Shown here: positions 4,798-34,890 of the stretch, piece after piece
Layout: every line of letters begins with the position of its first letter
Numbering within the stretch: the stretch's first letter is position 1
Assembly: GCA_021463845.1 (NCBI GenBank)
Contig: JAJTXV010000001.1
Coordinates: 518,174-582,173 of the forward strand
Origin: Anaerolineales bacterium
GTDB taxonomy: Bacteria; Chloroflexota; Anaerolineae; Anaerolineales; UBA11579
Length of the DNA: 64,000 nt
Direction: 5' to 3'
The notes under the pieces: model-generated
What the model was told of the DNA's origin: nothing
Database searches by the model: none
Seen by the model: the letters and a program-made list of their open reading frames with translations, nothing else
Program-made: the position numbers and the translations under genes

Positions 4798-5565
4798 CTA
4801 GGCGCTGGCATCCAGCGCGGCCACATCCTCCTTCTTCAATGTGAGTTCCAGCGAGCGGAAGTTGCTGTCAATGTGCTTGGGATTGTTCGAGCGCGGGATG
4901 ACGATAAAACCTTTGGCCATCAGCCAGGCCAGGGTGACTTGCTCCGGGGTGCTGTCGTAGGCCTCGGCCAGGTTGGCGACGAGCTTGCGCGCCTTGGCGC
5001 GCCCGCCCACTTTGACCGGGCTGTAGGCTGTGACGGTCACATTGTTGGCCAGGCAGAACTCGGCCACATCATCGGCGCGCACTTCCAGGTTGTACTCGAT
5101 CTGGTTGTTGCATACCGGCAGGCCAGTGGCGAGGGCGGCGCGCATGTCTTCGGCTTCAAAGTTGGACACGCCTATGGCGCGCACCTTGCCCGCCGCCCGC
5201 GTCTCTTCCATGGCGGCCAGGCTTTCCTCAGCCGGCGTGCCGGACAGCCAATGGATCAGCAGCAGGTCAATGTAGTCGGTGCCCAGCTCCTTCAAGAAGC
5301 GGTCCACAGCTGGGCCAACCTTAGCGGAGGCCAGGGTGCTGCCATATAGCTTGGTCACCAGGAAGATGTCTTCGCGCCGCAGGCCGCTGTCTTTCATCGC
5401 CTGGCCCACTTCGGTGTGGTTGTGATAGTAGTCGGCTGTATCCAGATGGCGGTAGCCGGTTTGCAGCGCGTGCAAGGTGGCCTGCTTGGCATCCTTAAGC
5501 GCCCAAGTGCCAAAGCCCATCTGCGGAATGTGTATGTTGTCCACCAGTGGAAGTGTTTTGTTCAT
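4798..5565 (-). CDS. Aldo/keto reductase (tandem paralog of 4012..4785)
   Basis: 255 aa. It has the same AKR motifs (GFGTW, GYRHLDTADYY, LLLIHW, GVSNF) and is collinear with its neighbour. Confidence 0.85.
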   Translation of the reverse strand: MNKTLPLVDNIHIPQMGFGTWALKDAKQATLHALQTGYRHLDTADYYHNHTEVGQAMKDSGLRREDIFLVTKLYGSTLASAKVGPAVDRFLKELGTDYIDLLLIHWLSGTPAEESLAAMEETRAAGKVRAIGVSNFEAEDMRAALATGLPVCNNQIEYNLEVRADDVAEFCLANNVTVTAYSPVKVGGRAKARKLVANLAEAYDSTPEQVTLAWLMAKGFIVIPRSNNPKHIDSNFRSLELTLKKEDVAALDASA

Positions 5566-6251
5566 TCGATATTGTCTTTCTTGGCCAGATTATGCCTTGC
5601 GCAAAGCAGCTGGATATTATTCGCAAGTAAAGAAGTCCCGCCTTTTGAGAAAGGGATCACGTGGTCAAAATGAAGCTCAGTGTTCTTCCCACATTGAACG
5701 CATTTCCCTCTATCTCTAGTCCAGACTTCTAGCTTGACACTGGATGGAATAATACGACTCGGTTCCAGTTCTCGAATTGTTTGAATTGAAAGATCACCCA
5801 GATTATCAGCGAGTCGGAGTTTGAACTTAAAGACATTTCTTATGCTGTCTGAAGAAATCCAGGCATCAATTAACTCGAATAGTCCATTGTTGGACCAAAT
5901 GCCACTGTGAATTTTTTCATAGACTCGCACTTTTTCCGCAGCGCGCTGCCCACCTTTATAGTCCTGAGCCGCCGTGAAGAACAACCCATTCTGAGTCAAA
6001 GTGCCTGATGATGTCTTCATCGGCTGGTCTATGGTTTTTACGTCTACTCCAGGTCTTCTTGATGCATCGTGTCCTTCATAAATCAGAACAGTGCCATTCT
6101 CTTGAAGTGCGTCGTTATATGGCGCATTTCTTCTAAGTGACATCAGGATTACTGAGTAACTTTTGCCGAGTTGATAGTTCATGCCCCGCTGAAGGCTTAC
6201 TCCCTCAGTTTGACACATCTCGATATAGGGAATAATTTCATTGTTCCGCAT
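5562..6251 (-). CDS. SRA(YDG)-like domain fused to an HNH nuclease; putative modification-dependent (type IV) restriction endonuclease
   Basis: 229 aa in a low-GC stretch. The C-terminus CVQCG...LHFDHVIPFSKGG...NIQLLCARHN is an HNH motif. The N-terminal ~150 aa (VILMS...YNDAL..NGTVLIYEGHD...DQ..T.GTLTQNGLF...KVRVYEK...NGLFELIDAW...VFKFKLRL) follows the order of SRA/YDG-domain landmarks. Confidence 0.6.
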   Translation of the reverse strand: MRNNEIIPYIEMCQTEGVSLQRGMNYQLGKSYSVILMSLRRNAPYNDALQENGTVLIYEGHDASRRPGVDVKTIDQPMKTSSGTLTQNGLFFTAAQDYKGGQRAAEKVRVYEKIHSGIWSNNGLFELIDAWISSDSIRNVFKFKLRLADNLGDLSIQTIRELEPSRIIPSSVKLEVWTRDRGKCVQCGKNTELHFDHVIPFSKGGTSLLANNIQLLCARHNLAKKDNIE

Positions 6252-8388: not shown

Positions 8389-10269
8389 CTATTCTCCAGA
8401 GGATGGCGGAGCCGGCGGCATGCCCGGCGTGCCGGGGCCGTATTGGTACACAGCTGCCCAGGGTTGGTACTTGGTCGTGATGACATCTTCGTTGATTACC
8501 TCGCCGTTGCGGTACACCGTGCGCGTCACGCGCACGGTAGCGCCCTCAGCAGCATAATCCACTTGATCGATCTCGCCAGTGGCAAAATCGGGATTCTCTT
8601 CGTACTTATCCTCCAGCGCCGGCACAATATCGCGCGGGCCGGTTGTGTTCCACTCCACGCTGCGCCCATCTGAGGTGGAGTAGAACTTCCAGGTGATGGA
8701 GCGGGCCGCCACGTTGACGTATGTCTCCATCAGTAGCCAGCTGTCGGTATCGTTCTGGAACTTGAAGTCAACCACCGGCGCGTACACTGTTGCATCCAGG
8801 CCCACCAGACGCGGGTCGCGCTGTACGGCGGCATTGTACTCGTAGTAGCTCACGCGGTAGGCATGGGCATAGCGTTCGATGATAGGGAAGCCGCCAAAGA
8901 ACGCGGCCCGGAACAGAGTGGTACTCACCTGGCACACGCCGCCGCCCACGCCCTGGATGGTGCGCCCACCGAAGATGATCAACGCCTCGGCAAAGCCGGA
9001 ATCGAGGCTGATGTCGCCGATGTTGTCCACCATCGAAAATACTGCGCCAGGCGGCACCAGCAGGCCATGAAAGCGCTCGGCGGCGGTCTGTATGTTCTGA
9101 ATGCGCTCCGGGCTGGAGCCGTAGAAATATGTGGTGGCTTCGACGACCAGCTCACGCAGGCCGAGGTCAGCGGCCTTGGCGTCATCCAGCACGGTGGGTT
9201 CGGTGAGGGTGTATTGCAGGTCGATCTGATGGGCGCCTTGGGCCAGCTGGGCGTTGATGTGATCAATGCTGTTTTGCACATGTAGCTGGCGGCCAATAAT
9301 GGCTGATTTGTAGAGATCGAGTTCGCGCGTCTCGTCATTGAAGATGAAGCGCGCATTGCGCGGCGTAGCAGCCACATCGGCAGACAGCGGCAGCAGGATC
9401 GCGGCCAGCTTGTCTGACTGCAGACCCACCTGGTAGTGTGCGCCATCGCCAGTTTCCACGCGCTCGATGCTCAGCATACCTGCCAGCTGCTCCGGCTCCA
9501 GCGTCCACGGTCCCGGGGCGTCCTCGTAATCGCCACCAGGGGCGATCACGAGCGGCTGGCTCAGGATGCCGCGGGCGATCTCGGCCTGCGCGCTCACGTC
9601 CAGGATGCGCGGCGGCTGCTCGATAACGGCCAGCGGCACGCGCACGTCTTGCATATCCAGCAGGGTGGCGGCCAGGAAGGCGCCCGTGCGCTCGGTATCC
9701 AGGGTCAGGCCCACTTGGCCGGGCTGCACTTGCACATCCAGCCCGTTGACGCTGAGCTGGGCTTCGACGGTGGGGCGGTTGAATTGGCTCGCCAGGCCTT
9801 GCAGAGTCAGCTGGGCCTGGTCGCCATTGAAAATCAGGCGCGGCGCCAGCTGTGCGCCGCCGCGCAGCGATTGGATCTTCTCGGCAATGCCTTCCCACGG
9901 CAGCCAGCTGCGGCCAAAGCCATAGGCCGCCTGGGCGCTGGCTTCGGCATCCAGCAGCAGGCCCAACTGGGCCGGGCTGTAGGTCCAGCTCTGGTCGCCA
10001 TAGGTCAGCGTCACCTGCCCGCTGAGCGGGTAGGTGAGCTGCTGGCTGAGGTAGGCGATCGCCTCGGTGCGGCGCATGCCGCCGATGTCCACGCCGCCCA
10101 CGCTGACGCCGGGATACACGCGGCCCAGGTACATCAGGCCAAAGATGACCGAGAACAGGAAGGCGGCCAGCGCAAGCAGCCCGGCGGCTACCGCCAGGGC
10201 GGCTGCCGCCTTGGCTACGAAGCGCGGTGGGGCAGGGCTATAGGATTGCGGGTAAGCCGTGGTAGACAT
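8389..10269 (-). CDS. VanW/YoaR-like protein with N-terminal membrane anchor
   Basis: 626 aa. It has an N-terminal TM helix and repeated peptidoglycan-binding-like segments. The C-terminal VanW-type core reads GGGVCQVSTTLFRAAFFGGFPIIERYAHAYRVSYYE. Confidence 0.75.
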   Translation of the reverse strand: MSTTAYPQSYSPAPPRFVAKAAAALAVAAGLLALAAFLFSVIFGLMYLGRVYPGVSVGGVDIGGMRRTEAIAYLSQQLTYPLSGQVTLTYGDQSWTYSPAQLGLLLDAEASAQAAYGFGRSWLPWEGIAEKIQSLRGGAQLAPRLIFNGDQAQLTLQGLASQFNRPTVEAQLSVNGLDVQVQPGQVGLTLDTERTGAFLAATLLDMQDVRVPLAVIEQPPRILDVSAQAEIARGILSQPLVIAPGGDYEDAPGPWTLEPEQLAGMLSIERVETGDGAHYQVGLQSDKLAAILLPLSADVAATPRNARFIFNDETRELDLYKSAIIGRQLHVQNSIDHINAQLAQGAHQIDLQYTLTEPTVLDDAKAADLGLRELVVEATTYFYGSSPERIQNIQTAAERFHGLLVPPGAVFSMVDNIGDISLDSGFAEALIIFGGRTIQGVGGGVCQVSTTLFRAAFFGGFPIIERYAHAYRVSYYEYNAAVQRDPRLVGLDATVYAPVVDFKFQNDTDSWLLMETYVNVAARSITWKFYSTSDGRSVEWNTTGPRDIVPALEDKYEENPDFATGEIDQVDYAAEGATVRVTRTVYRNGEVINEDVITTKYQPWAAVYQYGPGTPGMPPAPPSSGE

Positions 10270-10303
10270 GGGGAAATTGTATCGCTTACTCTCACAGATA
10301 TGA

Positions 10304-10332
10304 TTGACATTTAAAAATATGAGTGATATAAA
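10304..10332 (+). promoter_or_regulatory. Sigma70-like promoter upstream of the S12 paralog
   Basis: TTGACA (10304-10309), a 17-nt spacer, then TATAAA (10327-10332), about 40 nt upstream of ATG 10372. Confidence 0.45.
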
Positions 10333-10371
10333 CTACTGCTTATAAACAAGAATAGATGCTAGGACTGGTAA

Positions 10372-10797
10372 ATGCCAACAATTAATCAATTAGTTCGCAA
10401 GGGTCGTAAGACAAAGAGATCAAAGCAAAAGGCTAAGGCCTTTAAGTTCATTCTAAACTCAAAACTCTCGCTGCGAAAAAAAGATAAGAAGGGTTCCCCA
10501 CAAAAGCGTGGGGTTGCAACCGTAGTCCGCACGATGACGCCACGCAAACCTAATTCGGCGCTTCGAAAGATAATGCGCGTAAGATTATCGAATGGGATGG
10601 AAGTAACTGCTTATATACCAGGTGAAGGTCACACTTTGCAGGAGCACAGCGTCGTTCTAGTTAAGGGCGGAAAAGTTAGAGACTTACCTGGCGTAAGGTA
10701 TCATGTTGTGAGAGGCGCTTTAGATGCTACCGGCGTTGAAGGTAGAAAGCAAAGTAGAAGTAAATACGGAACTAAAAAAGCCAAGAAGGCGAGTTAG
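10372..10797 (+). CDS. rpsL: Ribosomal protein S12 paralog (divergent, stand-alone)
   Basis: 141 aa. S12 motifs run end to end: [20 protein letters not shown](R)[22 protein letters not shown](R)[14 protein letters not shown]. It has no rpsG/fusA/tuf neighbours and lies in low-GC context. Confidence 0.85.
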
Positions 10798-10819
10798 CCC
10801 TTTTTTTAAGGTGGTTGCT

Positions 10820-11326
10820 TTGGTTCAGGATGAAAAAATTGTAGCAATTGCGTATAAGCTTCATGTTGATGGAGCTTTATATGAAAGCGTCTCTAGCCAA
10901 GCTCCATTTGAGTATCTTCATGGTGGCAGTAATATCCTTACCGCGCTTGAAAAGGTGCTGCAGGGCAAATCAATTGGTGAAACTGTTGAAGTCAAGCTTT
11001 TAGCTGACCAAGCTTTTGGGGATTATGATGAGGACAGCGTAGAGGTGGTTCCGCGGAGTGATTTTGTCTTTACCCAGCCCGGCATCAATATAGAAGTTGG
11101 CCAGCAGGTTCAGCTAGTTGACAGTGAAGGCAATCTTACAAATTATGTTGTAACGAGATTTGATGACGCTGTTGTGGTTTTAGACCCTAATCATCAATTA
11201 GCGGGCAAGCAATTAAGTTTCACGATTGAAGTTGTAGGAATTAGGGAGCCATCTGCAAGCGAGCGTGATCGAGGTGTACCTAATAGTCTCGACTCAAGGC
11301 TTGGAGTGGTATTGAGACAGGAATAA
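10820..11326 (+). CDS. slyD: SlyD-like FKBP-type peptidyl-prolyl isomerase (no His-rich tail)
   Basis: ORF 10724..11326. The plausible start is TTG 10820 (SD AAGGTGG 5 nt upstream), with GTG 10811 as an alternative. It is collinear with SlyD: IVAIAYKLHVDG...PFEYLHGGSNILTALEKVLQGKSIGE...DPNHQLAGKQLSFTIEVVGIREPS. Confidence 0.75.
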   Translation: MVQDEKIVAIAYKLHVDGALYESVSSQAPFEYLHGGSNILTALEKVLQGKSIGETVEVKLLADQAFGDYDEDSVEVVPRSDFVFTQPGINIEVGQQVQLVDSEGNLTNYVVTRFDDAVVVLDPNHQLAGKQLSFTIEVVGIREPSASERDRGVPNSLDSRLGVVLRQE

Positions 11327-11375
11327 AATTTGTTGTTTTGATAGGCGGAGTGTTATTGTCTATACGGAGATTGAA

Positions 11376-12629
11376 TTGAAAAAGCTCCTTCTCGGGTGTC
11401 TCGGCGTTCTTCTGTTTGCATGTTCACCGGTGAGCAACTCTGGCACTGTTACTACGCTTCGAATTTTTGACTATTCACCAGATGCAGCAGCTTTCTGGGT
11501 CGAAATTATCCCACTGTTTGAACTTGAATACCCAGACATTGAAATTGTACACGAGTCGGTAACCCCGGATGTTTTTTTTCAATTGAAGTCTGCGAAAATT
11601 GCTGGTCAGAGCGTTGATATTATCTCAGGGCAACCACAAGACGACCTATTTACTAAGGCAAATAGAGATCTCTTTCTCCCATTGTCTGGCGAGGATTTCC
11701 TTGCAAATTTTTATCCTGATTTAGTTCAGCAGGGAGTAGTGGATGGGGAGATTTACTTAGTGCCGACAAGTATGGAAACGGTTTTAGTGTTTTATAACAA
11801 AGAAATCTTTGCCGAGCATGACCTCTCGATCCCTAGAACTTGGTCTGAATTCCTAAGTTGCCTTGAGGTTTTAGAAGCTGCCGGACATATTCCCATTTTA
11901 TTCGGTGGCCAACAGCAATGGCCTGTTGCCATGCACATTATTGCTCTAGAAACTGCGATTGTTAGAAGTGCTAACCCGGATTTTTATAGTCAAGTAAGAA
12001 TGGGAGAGAGTGCACACAATGATCCGGAGTGGGTAGAAGTCTTTGAAAAGCTATCAGTGCTTAAGGATTACTATCAACAATTTAGTCTTGGTCAGGACTA
12101 CGATCAAATTCCAAGTCTTTTCGCTTCAGGTACCGGGGCGATGATTATTGATGGGAGCTGGCAGGCTGGAGCTATAACAAAAGCTCAGCCGATCTTTGAT
12201 GTCGGAGTCTTTGCACTTCCAGGGACCGATGACGTTGATGCAAATGGCGTTGTATCAACAAAAATGGGGAATGGCTTTATGGTACTCAAGGATTCCCCAA
12301 ATCACGAAGCAGCTTTGAAATTCCTTGAGTTCTTCTCCCGACCAGAGATATACCAATTGTATGCTAATGCTACTGGCCGGCTACCATCGCAGCGTTCCGC
12401 GGAAATTACTGACTCCGTTTTGTTGGAGATCTTACGAACAATTAATGATGAGAAGTATCGTCAAGTAATGGTTTGGGAAAATTTAGTAATTCCTGGTGCT
12501 CGTTATGATTTTGATGCGCTTGGAATAGCGGTTGTGTCCGGAGATCTTTCGGGAATTGAGGCGGCAAACCGAATGCAGCAAAACATTTTAGATACTAAGG
12601 ATGATTGGGAAGAAATAGAGCTTCCATGA
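11376..12629 (+). CDS. ABC transporter substrate-binding lipoprotein (carbohydrate/CUT1-like)
   Basis: 417 aa with a TTG start. It has a lipobox (LLFACSP) and the layout of extracellular solute-binding family 1. Two MalF/MalG-type permeases follow it. Confidence 0.75.
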   Translation: MKKLLLGCLGVLLFACSPVSNSGTVTTLRIFDYSPDAAAFWVEIIPLFELEYPDIEIVHESVTPDVFFQLKSAKIAGQSVDIISGQPQDDLFTKANRDLFLPLSGEDFLANFYPDLVQQGVVDGEIYLVPTSMETVLVFYNKEIFAEHDLSIPRTWSEFLSCLEVLEAAGHIPILFGGQQQWPVAMHIIALETAIVRSANPDFYSQVRMGESAHNDPEWVEVFEKLSVLKDYYQQFSLGQDYDQIPSLFASGTGAMIIDGSWQAGAITKAQPIFDVGVFALPGTDDVDANGVVSTKMGNGFMVLKDSPNHEAALKFLEFFSRPEIYQLYANATGRLPSQRSAEITDSVLLEILRTINDEKYRQVMVWENLVIPGARYDFDALGIAVVSGDLSGIEAANRMQQNILDTKDDWEEIELP

Positions 12630-12662
12630 AAAGCGTAATGAGCACAATTCGGCTAGCTTAGT

Positions 12663-13568
12663 GTGTTCAAAAAACCGTTGTGGTCGAAAATTTCAGTTTA
12701 CCTTCCTTTTTTCGCGGCTGTCTTTCTCTTTTCCTTCTTTTTTTTGCTCCCAGCTTTTTTGAACTTAGTCTTCTCAGTTACAGATTTTGATGGAAATATT
12801 AATCAGATTCATTATATTGGTTTGCAAAACTTTGTTCGTGCATTTACGCTCGACCAAATGCGGATTTCTAACTCCCTCTTCGTAACATTAGTTTTTACAA
12901 TTGGGTCAGTCATCCCTTTAAATACTTTGGGCCTAGCATTGGCAGTTCTTGCTTTGGATGACACCCTCTACAATAGGGTTATCCGAGTAATAGTTTTTTC
13001 TCCTGCCATTTTGGGAACAATAGTTGTGGGGCTTACGTGGAGGCTGATGCTTGATCCTACGCGTGGACCTGTGAATGCTTTTTTACAAAAAATTGGAGAA
13101 GGCTCGGCGCTTTTGGGGGACTTGACGCTCTCTCTGCCCTTGGTCATTTTTGTTCGAGTTTGGATGTACTTGGGTTATACGATGCTCATATACACGATAG
13201 GCTTAAAAGCAATTAATTCAAGTATATATGATGCTGCTGTGGTAGACGGAGCCTCCTCGTTTCAGGTGTTTAGATTAATTTCTCTTCCTCTTCTTATCCC
13301 CGCAATATTAGTGAACTTGTTTTTTACAACTGTCGGCGCCTTAAATACATACGACATAATTGTTGTGCTTACAAATGGAGGGCCGCTGGATCGAACGACT
13401 ACACTCCCACTTTTTGTATATCGTATCCTTACTTCTGGCAGTACAATTGCATCTAGATATGGGACATTGGCCTATGGGACTGCAATTTCTACTGTTCACT
13501 TTATCTTGGTGATGTTAGCCGCGCTGGTTGCATACATTATTCTAAGGAAAGCGGCGAGCTCTTTTTGA
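12663..13568 (+). CDS. ABC transporter permease (MalF-like)
   Basis: 301 aa with six TM helices. The EAA-type loop reads IDGASSFQVFRLISLPLL. Confidence 0.8.
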   Translation: MFKKPLWSKISVYLPFFAAVFLFSFFFLLPAFLNLVFSVTDFDGNINQIHYIGLQNFVRAFTLDQMRISNSLFVTLVFTIGSVIPLNTLGLALAVLALDDTLYNRVIRVIVFSPAILGTIVVGLTWRLMLDPTRGPVNAFLQKIGEGSALLGDLTLSLPLVIFVRVWMYLGYTMLIYTIGLKAINSSIYDAAVVDGASSFQVFRLISLPLLIPAILVNLFFTTVGALNTYDIIVVLTNGGPLDRTTTLPLFVYRILTSGSTIASRYGTLAYGTAISTVHFILVMLAALVAYIILRKAASSF

Positions 13569-14383
13569 TGCAAGGACTTTTCAGCAGGAAAATTGCCAGG
13601 ATAAGTCTTGCGTGGTTTGCAGGATTAGTACTTGTGCCACTCTTATTGATTCTTCGGGTGTCATTGAAAGGAGAGGTTGATTGGCTGCAAAGGCCTCTTG
13701 ATTTCTTTTCTCCAGTTTATTTTGAAAACTACTTGGTTGCGTGGACAACTGCCCAGCTGGGAAAATCCTTTGCAAACAGTTTATTGTATTCATTATCAAC
13801 TGCCCTGATTGTGTGCCTAAGTGGCTTGATTATCGCTTACCCGATTTCCAGAAGAAATGTGCCCTACAGTTTATTTTGGCTTGCTTTGTTTGCGATTGGC
13901 CTTGTGATCCCCTTGGGGTTGATTCCTAGCGTTTATTTATTTAGATACTTGGGACTATACAACACTTACTTTGGATATGTGCTAGTTAGCTGCGCTATTA
14001 ATTTGCCCGTGGCGGTATTTTTGTTCGTGGCGTTCATTAAAACTATGCCTATTGAGCTTGAAGAAGCAGCCATCTTGGACGGATGCTCATACTTTGGTTT
14101 TCTTTATAGGATTTTGATTCCTCTAATGAAACCGGCAATTTTTGTTTCCGGATTATTGACGATAATATCAGTTTGGAATGACTTCATTAATCCCATGCTT
14201 TTTATTTCTGAAGCTTCATTGAGGCCTCTAACAACAAGTATTTATGTGTTTCAAGGGCAATTCGCGACTAACTGGCCATTATTGTCTGCTGCGATTGTCA
14301 TGATATCTCTGCCATTGGTCGCTATATTAATACTTTTGCAAAAAGAATTGGTGCCTAGTTTGCTTATAGAGTCATCAAAATAG
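13565..14383 (+). CDS. ABC transporter permease (MalG-like)
   Basis: 272 aa. It overlaps the upstream permease by 4 nt. The EAA loop reads EEAAILDGCSYFGFLYRILIPLMKP. Confidence 0.8.
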   Translation: MMQGLFSRKIARISLAWFAGLVLVPLLLILRVSLKGEVDWLQRPLDFFSPVYFENYLVAWTTAQLGKSFANSLLYSLSTALIVCLSGLIIAYPISRRNVPYSLFWLALFAIGLVIPLGLIPSVYLFRYLGLYNTYFGYVLVSCAINLPVAVFLFVAFIKTMPIELEEAAILDGCSYFGFLYRILIPLMKPAIFVSGLLTIISVWNDFINPMLFISEASLRPLTTSIYVFQGQFATNWPLLSAAIVMISLPLVAILILLQKELVPSLLIESSK

Positions 14384-14395
14384 ATGGGCGTGTAA

Positions 14396-14908
14396 ATGAC
14401 ATCTACTAACTCCTCTCCCCAACCCGTCTCCGTTTCGCGCATCACCATCTCCCAGCTGATGCAGCCGGAGAATGCCAACCTGCTCGGCAATGTCCACGGC
14501 GGCCACATCATGAAGCTGGTCGACGAGGCCGGCGCCCTGGCCTGCATGAAGCACAGCCGCCAGCGCGTGGTCACCGTGGCGGTGGACCGCATGACCTTCC
14601 AGCATCCCATCCGCATCGGTGACCTCATCATCATCCATGCCGAGGTCAGTTATGTCGGCAGCACCTCGATGGAGGCCGAGGTCTCTGTGCACGCCGAGAA
14701 CCCCACCACCGGCGAGAGCTGGCACACCAATACCGCCTACCTGGTCTATGTAGCCTTGGGCGAGGACGGCAAGCCGGTGCGCGTGCCGCCGCTGGAAGCT
14801 GAGAACGACTTCCAGCGCCAGCGCATGGAGCAGGGCGCCGCCCGCCAGAAGTATCGCCTCGAACAGGCCAAGCAGGAACGCTCCCTCTTCGGCAAAGACT
14901 CTGCATGA
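14396..14908 (+). CDS. Acyl-CoA thioesterase (hotdog fold)
   Basis: 170 aa. ISQLMQPENANLLGNVHGGHIMKLVDEAGALA is the YciA/ACOT-type hotdog signature. Confidence 0.8.
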   Translation: MTSTNSSPQPVSVSRITISQLMQPENANLLGNVHGGHIMKLVDEAGALACMKHSRQRVVTVAVDRMTFQHPIRIGDLIIIHAEVSYVGSTSMEAEVSVHAENPTTGESWHTNTAYLVYVALGEDGKPVRVPPLEAENDFQRQRMEQGAARQKYRLEQAKQERSLFGKDSA

Positions 14909-34029: not shown

Positions 34030-34890
34030 GTGGCCCCGCGCCGCAAGCTGGCCGTCACCGCCCGCGTGGTGCATGGCGACAATCTGGCCGTGCTGCGCGG
34101 CTTGCCCGACGCGTGCGTGAACCTCATATACATTGATCCGCCGTTCAACACCGGCAAGAAGCAAGCCCGCAGCCGCCTGCGCACGGAGCGCAGCCAGGAT
34201 GGCGACCGGGTGGGCTTCGGCGGGCGGCGCTACAGCACGACAGTGCTGGGCAGCCGCGCCTTCGACGACGCCTTTGACGACTATCTGGAATTTCTGGAGC
34301 CACGTTTGCGCGAGGCGCACCGCGTGCTGGCGACGGACGGCAGCTTCTATTTCCATGTCGATTACCGCGAAGTGCACTATTGCAAGATCCTGCTCGACGA
34401 GATCTTCGGCCGGCACAATTTCTTGAACGAGATTATCTGGGCCTATGACTATGGCGGGCGATCCAAGGACCGCTGGCCCGCCAAGCACGACAACATTCTG
34501 CTGTACGTCAAAAATAACAAGCGCTACACCTTCAACGTTGAGGACATCGAGCGTATCCCGTATATGGCGCCGGCGCTGGCGGGTGAAGCCAAGGCCGCCC
34601 GCGGCAAGCTGCCCACGGACACCTGGTGGCATACCATCGTGAGCCCGACGGGCAAGGAGAAAACCGGGTACCCTACCCAGAAGCCGCTCGGCGTGCTGCG
34701 CCGCATCATCACGGCCTCGTCCAACCCGGGCGACCTGGTGCTGGACTTCTTTGCGGGCAGCGGCACCACCGGTGCGGCTGCCCTGGAGCTGGGGCGCCGC
34801 TTCCTGCTGGTGGACAGCCACAAGGAAGCGATTGATGTAATGCGCGCCAGGTTTAAGAGCAAGGAAGTGGAATTCACAGAAGAAAAATAG
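34030..34890 (+). CDS. Beta-class DNA methyltransferase (N6-adenine or N4-cytosine), orphan
   Basis: 286 aa with a GTG start 4 nt after the tkt stop. Motif IV (IYIDPPFNTG) precedes motif I (VLDFFAGSGTTGAAA), which is the beta-class order. No nuclease gene is adjacent. Confidence 0.8.
   Translation: MAPRRKLAVTARVVHGDNLAVLRGLPDACVNLIYIDPPFNTGKKQARSRLRTERSQDGDRVGFGGRRYSTTVLGSRAFDDAFDDYLEFLEPRLREAHRVLATDGSFYFHVDYREVHYCKILLDEIFGRHNFLNEIIWAYDYGGRSKDRWPAKHDNILLYVKNNKRYTFNVEDIERIPYMAPALAGEAKAARGKLPTDTWWHTIVSPTGKEKTGYPTQKPLGVLRRIITASSNPGDLVLDFFAGSGTTGAAALELGRRFLLVDSHKEAIDVMRARFKSKEVEFTEEK

Follow-up and report, generated by a model that had tools for sequence, protein, structure and literature searches.

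Ribosomal protein S12 (uS12), the product of rpsL, lies at the decoding centre of the ribosome and is the target of streptomycin, and most of the known cases of a diverged second ribosomal protein gene concern small Zn-motif proteins. In this work we analysed a stretch of 64,000 nucleotides (nt) from an Anaerolineales bacterium (assembly GCA_021463845.1, contig JAJTXV010000001.1), which we call the window and to which all the coordinates refer, and particularly an rpsL gene located at 10372..10797 on the forward (+) strand. This gene is the first one of a strain-specific island of low guanine-plus-cytosine content (GC), its product has Arg at both of the Lys positions of E. coli S12 that are known from streptomycin resistance, and it is very probably a copy acquired beside the native rpsL. 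We call its product the island S12.

Yutin et al. surveyed 995 bacterial genomes (PMC3353972); they did not list S12 among the never-duplicating proteins, and according to them all the highly diverged paralogs were Zn-motif proteins. The supplementary partition table of that work holds 998 'S12' strings for the 995 genomes, a rough hint that extra copies are very few. A second, diverged rpsL gene of natural origin was not described in the literature that we searched. The general kind is known, namely ribosomal protein paralogs and xenologs, and what is new here is that it concerns a core decoding-site protein, arrived very recently, with resistance-type residues and very probably beside the wild-type gene. 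The closest described systems are the following.

i) Canonical long-form uS12 of the str operon in Chloroflexota and Firmicutes. The island S12 shares with it the fold family, the length class, the core motifs and the RimO-type Asp. However, its gene is part of a foreign island, without rpsG-fusA-tuf after it, and the protein differs by Arg at K43 and K88, by Lys at R83 and R86 (E. coli numbering), and by KAF and RGVA.

ii) Spontaneous and clinical streptomycin-resistant rpsL alleles of E. coli, Salmonella, Klebsiella and mycobacteria. These carry the same substitutions at the same two residues. Nevertheless, they are point mutations of a single native gene with no wild-type copy left, whereas the island S12 is a diverged extra gene, very probably beside the wild type.

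iii) Alternative ribosomal protein paralogs (Zn-independent L31, L33, L36, S14 and S18; bS21 of Francisella). These are, as the island S12 very probably is, diverged second genes outside the main operons which could create ribosome heterogeneity. The known diverged paralogs are either Zn-motif proteins (PMC3353972) or small peripheral ones, conserved across lineages and regulated (e.g. by Zur), whereas the island S12 is a core decoding-site protein without Zn motif that is found in one strain.

iv) Horizontally transferred ribosomal protein genes (Zn and non-Zn forms of S14 and S4; PMC3087516). Here too an informational gene has moved between lineages. However, the S14 and S4 transfers are mostly replacements or ancient paralogs shared by a clade, whereas the island S12 is a very recent addition among operational genes.

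v) Target-replacement genes dfrA and sul. These are, as the island S12, acquired variants of a drug target with resistance-type residues. In contrast, the resistance given by dfrA and sul is dominant and that of rpsL recessive, the island has no flanking mobility genes, and any resistance from the island S12 would be hypothetical.

The island S12 and its arginines

The features of the gene and of its upstream region are given by coordinates, strand and description, with the evidence in brackets.

10372..10797, +, very probably second uS12 gene (rpsL xenolog), 141 amino acids (aa), 44.6% GC (open reading frame (ORF) and S12 profile matches)
10543..10545, +, codon 58, CGC, Arg at E. coli K43, which is K42 in mature-protein numbering (alignment, codon check)
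10663..10680, +, loop K98-G-G-K101-V-R103, canonically R-G-G-R-V-K, that is R83K, R86K and K88R in E. coli numbering (alignment)
10678-10680, +, codon 103, AGA, Arg at E. coli K88 (alignment, codon check)
10304..10332, +, putative sigma-70-like promoter by consensus match, with TTGACA at 10304-10309, a 17-nt spacer, TATAAA at 10327-10332 and TG at 10324-10325 (sequence reading)
10362..10365, +, Shine-Dalgarno sequence AGGA upstream of the S12 start codon, ATG (sequence reading)

The island S12 gene is intact and passes the equivalog model of bacterial S12. Solved bacterial S12 proteins in the PDB align with the ORF end to end (E = 4e-54, residues 1-139), Pfam PF00164 matches it at 1.4e-35, and the NCBIfam equivalog TIGR00981, whose curated cut-off is 112.95 bits, gives 198.2 bits over residues 1-138, compared with 217.1 bits for P0254, the native S12 of the host species. 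With this full-length score above the cut-off the protein is a member of the bacterial uS12 family, as a preliminary description of the locus had already read it. The core motifs are all kept (PNSALRK, GEGHxLQEHS and [14 protein letters not shown]), and so are the decoding-site motifs [25 protein letters not shown] and Asp104, which we take to be the Asp that RimO modifies in E. coli. Between the island S12 and P0254, 107 of the 141 residues are identical (76%), and the two proteins can be told apart by peptides such as TMTPR vs TMTPK and VRDLPGVR vs VKDLPGVR. The genes themselves are of different composition (44.6% GC vs 61.7% in the native one) and codon use, with seven AGA/AGG and four TTA codons in the island S12 and none of either in canonical rpsL. 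Regarding regulation, the sole promoter seen before the gene is of the constitutive-looking sigma-70 type, by consensus match; our promoter scan asked for T as the last base of the second hexamer and thus passed over the TATAAA element.

Residues were mapped on an alignment with the 119 closest S12 proteins and with those of E. coli and Thermus as rulers. HMMER alignments to PDB chains give the same mapping. The canonical RGGRVKD reads KGGKVRD in the island S12, and the Arg residues reported in the preliminary description, encoded by CGC and AGA, do stand at the positions homologous to K43 and K88. Among the 119 closest S12 proteins, Lys is found at K43 in 117/119 and at K88 in 112/119, and Arg at R83 in 119/119 and at R86 in 117/119. 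When the query entry is added to these 119 proteins, 108 of the 120 have Lys at both positions (K/K), five have K88R alone, two have K43R alone, and Arg at both (R/R) is found in the query entry only. Furthermore, R/R was found in 0/80 species-representative genomes, although single Arg variants occur there in canonical genes, e.g. K88R in several Planctomycetota. The K43R protein P0002 is also the product of an ordinary rpsL with rpsG next to it. Thus, either Arg can be found naturally, but both together are rare. Lys at 43 and 88, which the island S12 lacks, is typical of the uS12 family without strictly defining it, given the single Arg variants of canonical genes.

The PDB has one long-form S12 in two otherwise identical versions, K/K in 5nd8 and 20 other entries (21) and R/R in 5li0, 8bh6, 8bh7, 9rvc and 9t4r. 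These ribosomes are presumably those of Staphylococcus aureus. As an R/R long-form S12 is present in solved ribosome structures, a double-Arg S12 appears compatible with a working ribosome, as deposited. The two versions (chains 5li0_l and 8bh6_l vs 5nd8_l) may reflect either a strain difference or different reference sequences.

Two further observations concern the same residues in canonical genes. A widely sampled Anaerolineaceae S12 (P0017, P0018, P0036, P0040) occurs in K/K, K43R-only and K88R-only versions that are otherwise nearly identical, which suggests a natural streptomycin-resistance polymorphism in the canonical rpsL of environmental Chloroflexota. The loop departs from the usual sequence also in a low-GC metagenome-assembled genome (MAG) of Dehalococcoidia (L018, 5001-5414), whose canonical S12 has GGKVPD, where Lys replaces R86 and Pro replaces K88.

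Regarding the N-terminus, the preliminary description had claimed a Lys-rich insertion of about 15 residues ([21 protein letters not shown]), and this claim had to be dropped. The segment is extra only in comparison with E. coli and Thermus; a segment of the same length, without any gap, is present in 119/119 of the closest S12 proteins, which are from Anaerolineae and 136-166 aa long, and in the long-form S12 of the PDB. By alignment it is the normal long N-terminus that S12 has in Chloroflexota and Firmicutes. The best PDB matches with the long form are presumably S12 proteins of Listeria, Bacillus and Staphylococcus. Nevertheless, the residues inside the segment are strongly diverged, with K instead of P22 and F instead of L24, by which the invariant PAL reads KAF. 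Furthermore, RGVC reads RGVA, and Ala is found there also in ordinary Firmicutes S12.

The island and the native rpsL

The island and its surroundings contain the following features, where SBP stands for solute-binding protein and GC3 for the GC fraction at third codon positions.

10285..14395, +, strain-specific low-GC island of 4.1 kb between a VanW gene and a 4HBT thioesterase gene (blastn, GC3, junction contigs)
8389..10269, -, host flank, VanW/PG_binding_4/G5 protein (Pfam; syntenic in relatives)
10288..10303, +, probable remnant of the old thioesterase promoter/start region (CTCACAG...ATATGA) at the left junction (a weak reading against the L108 intergenic region)
10820..11326, +, SlyD-like FKBP-type peptidyl-prolyl isomerase, likely start TTG 10820 (or GTG 10811), after AAGGTGG at 10808-10814 (Pfam FKBP_C)
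11376..12629, +, lipoprotein-type SBP of a carbohydrate-type ABC importer (Pfam SBP_bac_1 and SBP_bac_8, 1.3e-32)
12663..13568, +, ABC permease 1 (Pfam BPD_transp_1)
13565..14383, +, ABC permease 2, with its stop codon 12 nt before the thioesterase ATG (Pfam BPD_transp_1)
14396..14908, +, host flank, 4HBT thioesterase (Pfam, junction sequence)

The island is a real, strain-specific insertion. Its GC is 42.0% vs 62.5% in the rest of the window, and the foreign composition is uniform across its five genes (S12, the SlyD-like FKBP, the sugar-type SBP and two permeases), which have GC3 values of 0.35-0.41 vs 0.75-0.85 in the flanking genes. In the two closest sequenced relatives, GCA_019637675.1 (MurA 92.6% identical) and GCA_026129255.1 (90.3%), the flanks are syntenic but the VanW and thioesterase genes are direct divergent neighbours with a spacer of 62-73 bp and no island. 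The blastn homology of the window to these island-free loci (L108, L109) ends at 10284 and restarts at 14417. Exact copies of the island SBP came up solely in Logan runs and on the 792-kb NCBI contig of the host. The database used also covers the proteins of CP075527.1, the conspecific 2.25-Mb chromosome, and there the SBP is missing. The low-GC block and the horizontal acquisition proposed in the preliminary description are thus upheld.

A sharp switch of composition exactly at the gene borders, together with the short flanks of Logan contig L001, which extends only about 350 bp beyond each junction, could make one think of an artefact, i.e. a low-GC block placed on a high-GC contig by chimeric mis-assembly or contamination. 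We give next to no credence to this explanation. Both junctions are 100% identical in independent assemblies of several runs and in the 792-kb NCBI contig: the Logan per-run assemblies SRR17318673, 674, 676, 677 and 679 have the locus at 100% identity, and several Logan contigs (4.8-43 kb) cross both junctions, those of 8-43 kb reaching far into host sequence on either side.

The host species also has a canonical rpsL. Chromosome CP075527.1, whose MurA is 99.3% identical to the host MurA, encodes P0254 (139 aa, K/K; gene of 62% GC) in the order rpoB-rpsL-rpsG-fusA-tuf-rpsJ. P0254 is found in the same context on Logan contigs of SRR17318678 and SRR17318679, with DNA 97.6-97.9% identical to CP075527.1, and SRR17318679 has the island locus L008 as well. 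The island-free GCA_026129255.1 has the canonical operon too. The island S12 is hence very probably not the only S12 gene of the genome, and its composition is not the native one. Because the canonical operon occurs in the host species and in the host's own sequencing runs, the island S12 is very probably an acquired second copy beside the native rpsL, as the preliminary description had supposed, with linkage in the same genome as our inference. It would also be conceivable that the native rpsL was lost and that the imported S12 is the sole copy, which would make the strain intrinsically streptomycin-resistant and would solve the problem that rpsL resistance is recessive. We consider such a replacement highly improbable, since canonical rpoB-rpsL-rpsG-fusA contigs are in the same runs as the island (SRR17318679: L134, L008), the identity of these contigs to the conspecific chromosome, about 97.8%, agrees with the divergence of the host MurA, and the canonical gene is in all the relatives.

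Two remarks belong to the native protein. We discarded P0004 as the host's own S12 because it comes from unrelated samples. P0254 is found in two downstream arrangements, tuf followed by rpmG-secE-nusG-rplK in a JGI contig and tuf followed by rpsJ-rplC in CP075527.1 (L129 vs L127), so the species has either two tuf loci or an operon that was rearranged between strains.

Downstream of the island S12 the canonical str-operon order (rpsG, then fusA and tuf) is missing and an FKBP and ABC transporter genes follow instead, namely FKBP/SlyD-like, SBP_bac_1 and two BPD_transp_1 genes. This agrees with the stand-alone S12 reported before. S7 comes directly after S12 in about 77/80 reference genomes. 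Canonical rpsL without rpsG directly after is rare, and L034 (5001-5375, a Zixibacteria MAG), L014 and L082 show that the str operon is occasionally broken. L034 was considered as an S12 paralog and rejected, since it is an rpoC-rpsL locus followed by unrelated genes, that is, a broken operon.

The FKBP_C match of the island FKBP is 2.2e-6, with 28.4 bits vs a Pfam cut-off of 21.1. Its 91 bits with PRK10737 (SlyD) are below the cut-off of 174, so it is SlyD-like and not a SlyD equivalog. The SBP has only weak sugar-SBP matches in NCBIfam, and an ATPase gene is absent from the island. S12 and FKBP are separated by 22 nt without a terminator between them. Gene callers choose an FKBP ORF of 196-200 aa that starts inside S12, at ATG 10724 (10736 in some contigs), and then often drop S12, which is uncalled in most public assemblies of the island locus (L005-L008, L107). 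Because the SlyD-model alignment starts at residue 3 of the FKBP version that begins at TTG 10820, a short FKBP with a separate S12 seems to be the better gene model.

S12 has RNA-chaperone activity in vitro. This activity, the predicted co-transcription with an FKBP chaperone and not with translation genes, and the changes of family-invariant N-terminal residues (PAL to KAF, RGVC to RGVA) would fit an extraribosomal role of the S12-like protein, e.g. in RNA chaperoning or in an association with the SlyD-like FKBP encoded next to it, as its partner or client. However, the whole core that contacts rRNA and the decoding site is conserved, the equivalog score is far above the cut-off, the S12-FKBP pairing is not conserved elsewhere and RGVA is shared with ordinary Firmicutes S12. 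An extraribosomal role is therefore very unlikely in our opinion.

Regarding the junctions, the island probably landed between the former thioesterase promoter region and the thioesterase start codon. As suggested by the remnant at the left junction and by the gap of 12 nt between the permease stop codon and the thioesterase ATG, the host thioesterase and RsmD-like methyltransferase genes are now probably transcribed from the island, by read-through. Neither an integrase or transposase nor a tRNA gene turned up at the island in the domain and tRNA scans, the repeat scan gave no convincing direct or inverted repeats at its ends, and no Rfam element was found as an RNA leader or riboswitch. No recognisable mobile element is thus seen as the carrier of the island S12. 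The ATGA present at both junctions (10288-10303, 14384-14398) is only 4 nt long, too short to call it a target-site duplication.

Other parts of the window drew our attention as well. An ORF of 229 aa with an HNH-endonuclease domain (5562-6251, - strand) has foreign composition like the S12 island (GC 0.44, GC3 0.43) and is missing in both close relatives: in L108 nothing separates the HEAT-repeat gene from the aldo-keto reductase gene after it, and in L109 the place is taken by an unrelated ORF of 150 aa. By comparison with these relatives the HNH ORF represents another strain-specific insertion, located some 4 kb away from the island, and the two may share a donor or have arrived in one event. 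Between the transketolase and transaldolase genes there is a gene for an N6/N4 DNA methylase (34030-34890, + strand), and none of the genes adjoining it is obviously a restriction partner.

Origin of the island S12

The preliminary description had regarded the S12 gene as imported. The acquisition stands; nevertheless, a donor from a distant phylum was not found, as the nearest S12 proteins belong to Anaerolineae/Chloroflexota, the host's own class, with 74-78% identity and a maximum of 78% among 5.8 billion proteins. Among the matches listed for 185,579 species representatives the maximum identity is 74%. The FKBP reaches at most 44% identity (JGI metagenomes), and the next best protein to the SBP after the exact copies is 44% identical, the SBP relatives P0285 and P0286 being in the range of 42-44%. 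In the public data searched we found no close relative of S12, FKBP or SBP. Plasmid- or phage-borne relatives of the island S12 are not close either. The best of them has an identity of about 70%, or 80% in a partial match, and the plasmid and phage records with S12 matches are for the most part apparently fragments of chromosomes. Furthermore, the S12-FKBP pair did not recur in 18 metagenome loci with FKBP relatives. The closest relatives of the host do not have the island S12, which therefore does not represent a paralog family conserved across related genomes.

Within the sample, the GHTLQEHS of the island S12 is shared only with Anaerolineae-type S12. In a distance tree the protein has no stable sister, and its terminal branch is 0.143 vs a median of 0.075, i.e. 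about twice as long. Its mean identity to outgroups is 70.0% vs 73.1% for the native S12, which is a modest acceleration of rate. The low-GC Dehalococcoidia S12 (L018) was considered as a sister and set aside, since this pairing looks like a long-branch or compositional effect. A Firmicutes donor, hinted at by the best PDB matches, was also discarded because the nearest S12 database-wide are those of Anaerolineae/Chloroflexota. From these comparisons the donor would probably be an unsampled low-GC lineage within Chloroflexota, where the island S12 appears to have been under purifying selection until recently. Because the composition of the island is not ameliorated, one can hardly judge from the intact ORF whether the gene is under selection in its present host.

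Possible role of the island S12 and its meaning

Two hydrogen bonds link K42 of S12 to streptomycin, and the same residue forms a salt bridge with A913 of 16S rRNA (PMC2916820). In K42R the drug contacts are lost and the salt bridge is kept, which gives high-level resistance without hyperaccuracy (PMC2916820), and this change is non-restrictive and nearly cost-free (PMC2916820, PMC4182516). With K87R, resistance comes at the expense of some growth and virulence (PMC4182516). However, rpsL resistance is fully recessive, with h = 0 for K43T, and rpsL resistance alleles are almost never found on natural mobile elements (PMC7355013). This supports the caveat of the preliminary description on recessivity.

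The explanation that we favour, by a modest degree of confidence, is that the island S12 is a ribosome-competent xenolog which arrived recently in a small operon whose useful cargo, if any, is the transporter, the Arg/Arg pair being a trait of the donor's S12. A five-gene block landed between the VanW and thioesterase genes of one Anaerolineales strain, whose species keeps the native K/K rpsL. The island S12 would be expressed and would compete with the native protein for a place in the 30S subunits, a fraction of which would contain it. Such subunits may bind streptomycin poorly, because Arg at K42/K43 loses two hydrogen bonds and Arg at K87/K88 is a known resistance change. Nevertheless, streptomycin sensitivity is dominant, and since resistant rpsL alleles are recessive, strong resistance would not be expected from the island S12 while the native gene is present. 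Most simply, the double Arg and the two Arg-to-Lys swaps would be traits of the S12 of an unsampled low-GC donor, and in the present host the island S12 is most likely a passenger of the island.

Several points weigh against this passenger explanation. A strong putative promoter directly before S12, with S12 as the lead gene, is unexpected for useless cargo. The four charge-conserving Lys/Arg swaps cluster in two decoding-site loops, and the two Lys-to-Arg ones oppose the AT-rich trend, so that selection rather than drift is possible. A donor with this S12 as its sole one would have an rpsL without rpsG after it, as in about 3/80 of the reference genomes. Finally, the linkage of the island and the canonical rpsL rests on their co-occurrence in the same run and on a conspecific chromosome, and both expression and ribosome incorporation of the island S12 are predictions.

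Part of this evidence could instead point to an accessory S12 isoform under selection, as proposed in the preliminary description, which would make ribosomes insensitive to streptomycin-like aminoglycosides, or alter their accuracy, and would provide tolerance or a specialised ribosome pool. Its preferential assembly might come from the co-transcribed SlyD-like chaperone or from high expression by the strong promoter. The reading frame is undamaged, and a near-consensus promoter and a Shine-Dalgarno sequence precede it; Arg stands at exactly the two low-cost resistance positions, a combination unique among about 200 compared S12 proteins; R83K and R86K are in the same loop, at two positions that vary little or not at all among relatives; the Lys-to-Arg changes run counter to the AT-rich composition of the gene; K42R is the non-restrictive change described above; and S12 and FKBP lie close together with no terminator. 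However, the full recessivity of resistant alleles and their near absence from mobile elements (PMC7355013) argue against such an isoform. Moreover, the island is in one strain and its composition is not ameliorated, which leaves little time for selection in the host, and neither a similar S12 elsewhere nor an S12-FKBP pair in the 18 loci with FKBP relatives was found. The 64-kb window has no genes for aminoglycoside biosynthesis or resistance either, the rest of it being housekeeping genes (pentose-phosphate genes, bL25, LigD and others). We therefore regard a selected isoform as possible but doubtful.

It is unlikely, and more so than the accessory isoform in general, that the gene is a transferable drug-insensitive uS12, i.e. 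a target replacement of a core ribosomal protein. To act in this way it would have to outcompete the native protein in 30S assembly by means of its strong promoter and possibly the SlyD-like chaperone. If it were true, an Arg/Arg S12 that outcompetes the native one would provide a pool of ribosomes tolerant to streptomycin or shifted in accuracy, although rpsL resistance is recessive according to the textbooks.

The locus also represents a problem of annotation, as an overlapping longer ORF hides the S12 gene in most of the assemblies. According to experiments and surveys, resistant rpsL alleles should almost never travel horizontally, because the resident wild type masks them. A double-Arg S12 beside a native rpsL is thus an object on which the dominance rule and the heterogeneity of Chloroflexota ribosomes can be tested. 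If it is a passenger, it would be a clean example of a core informational gene carried along with operational genes.

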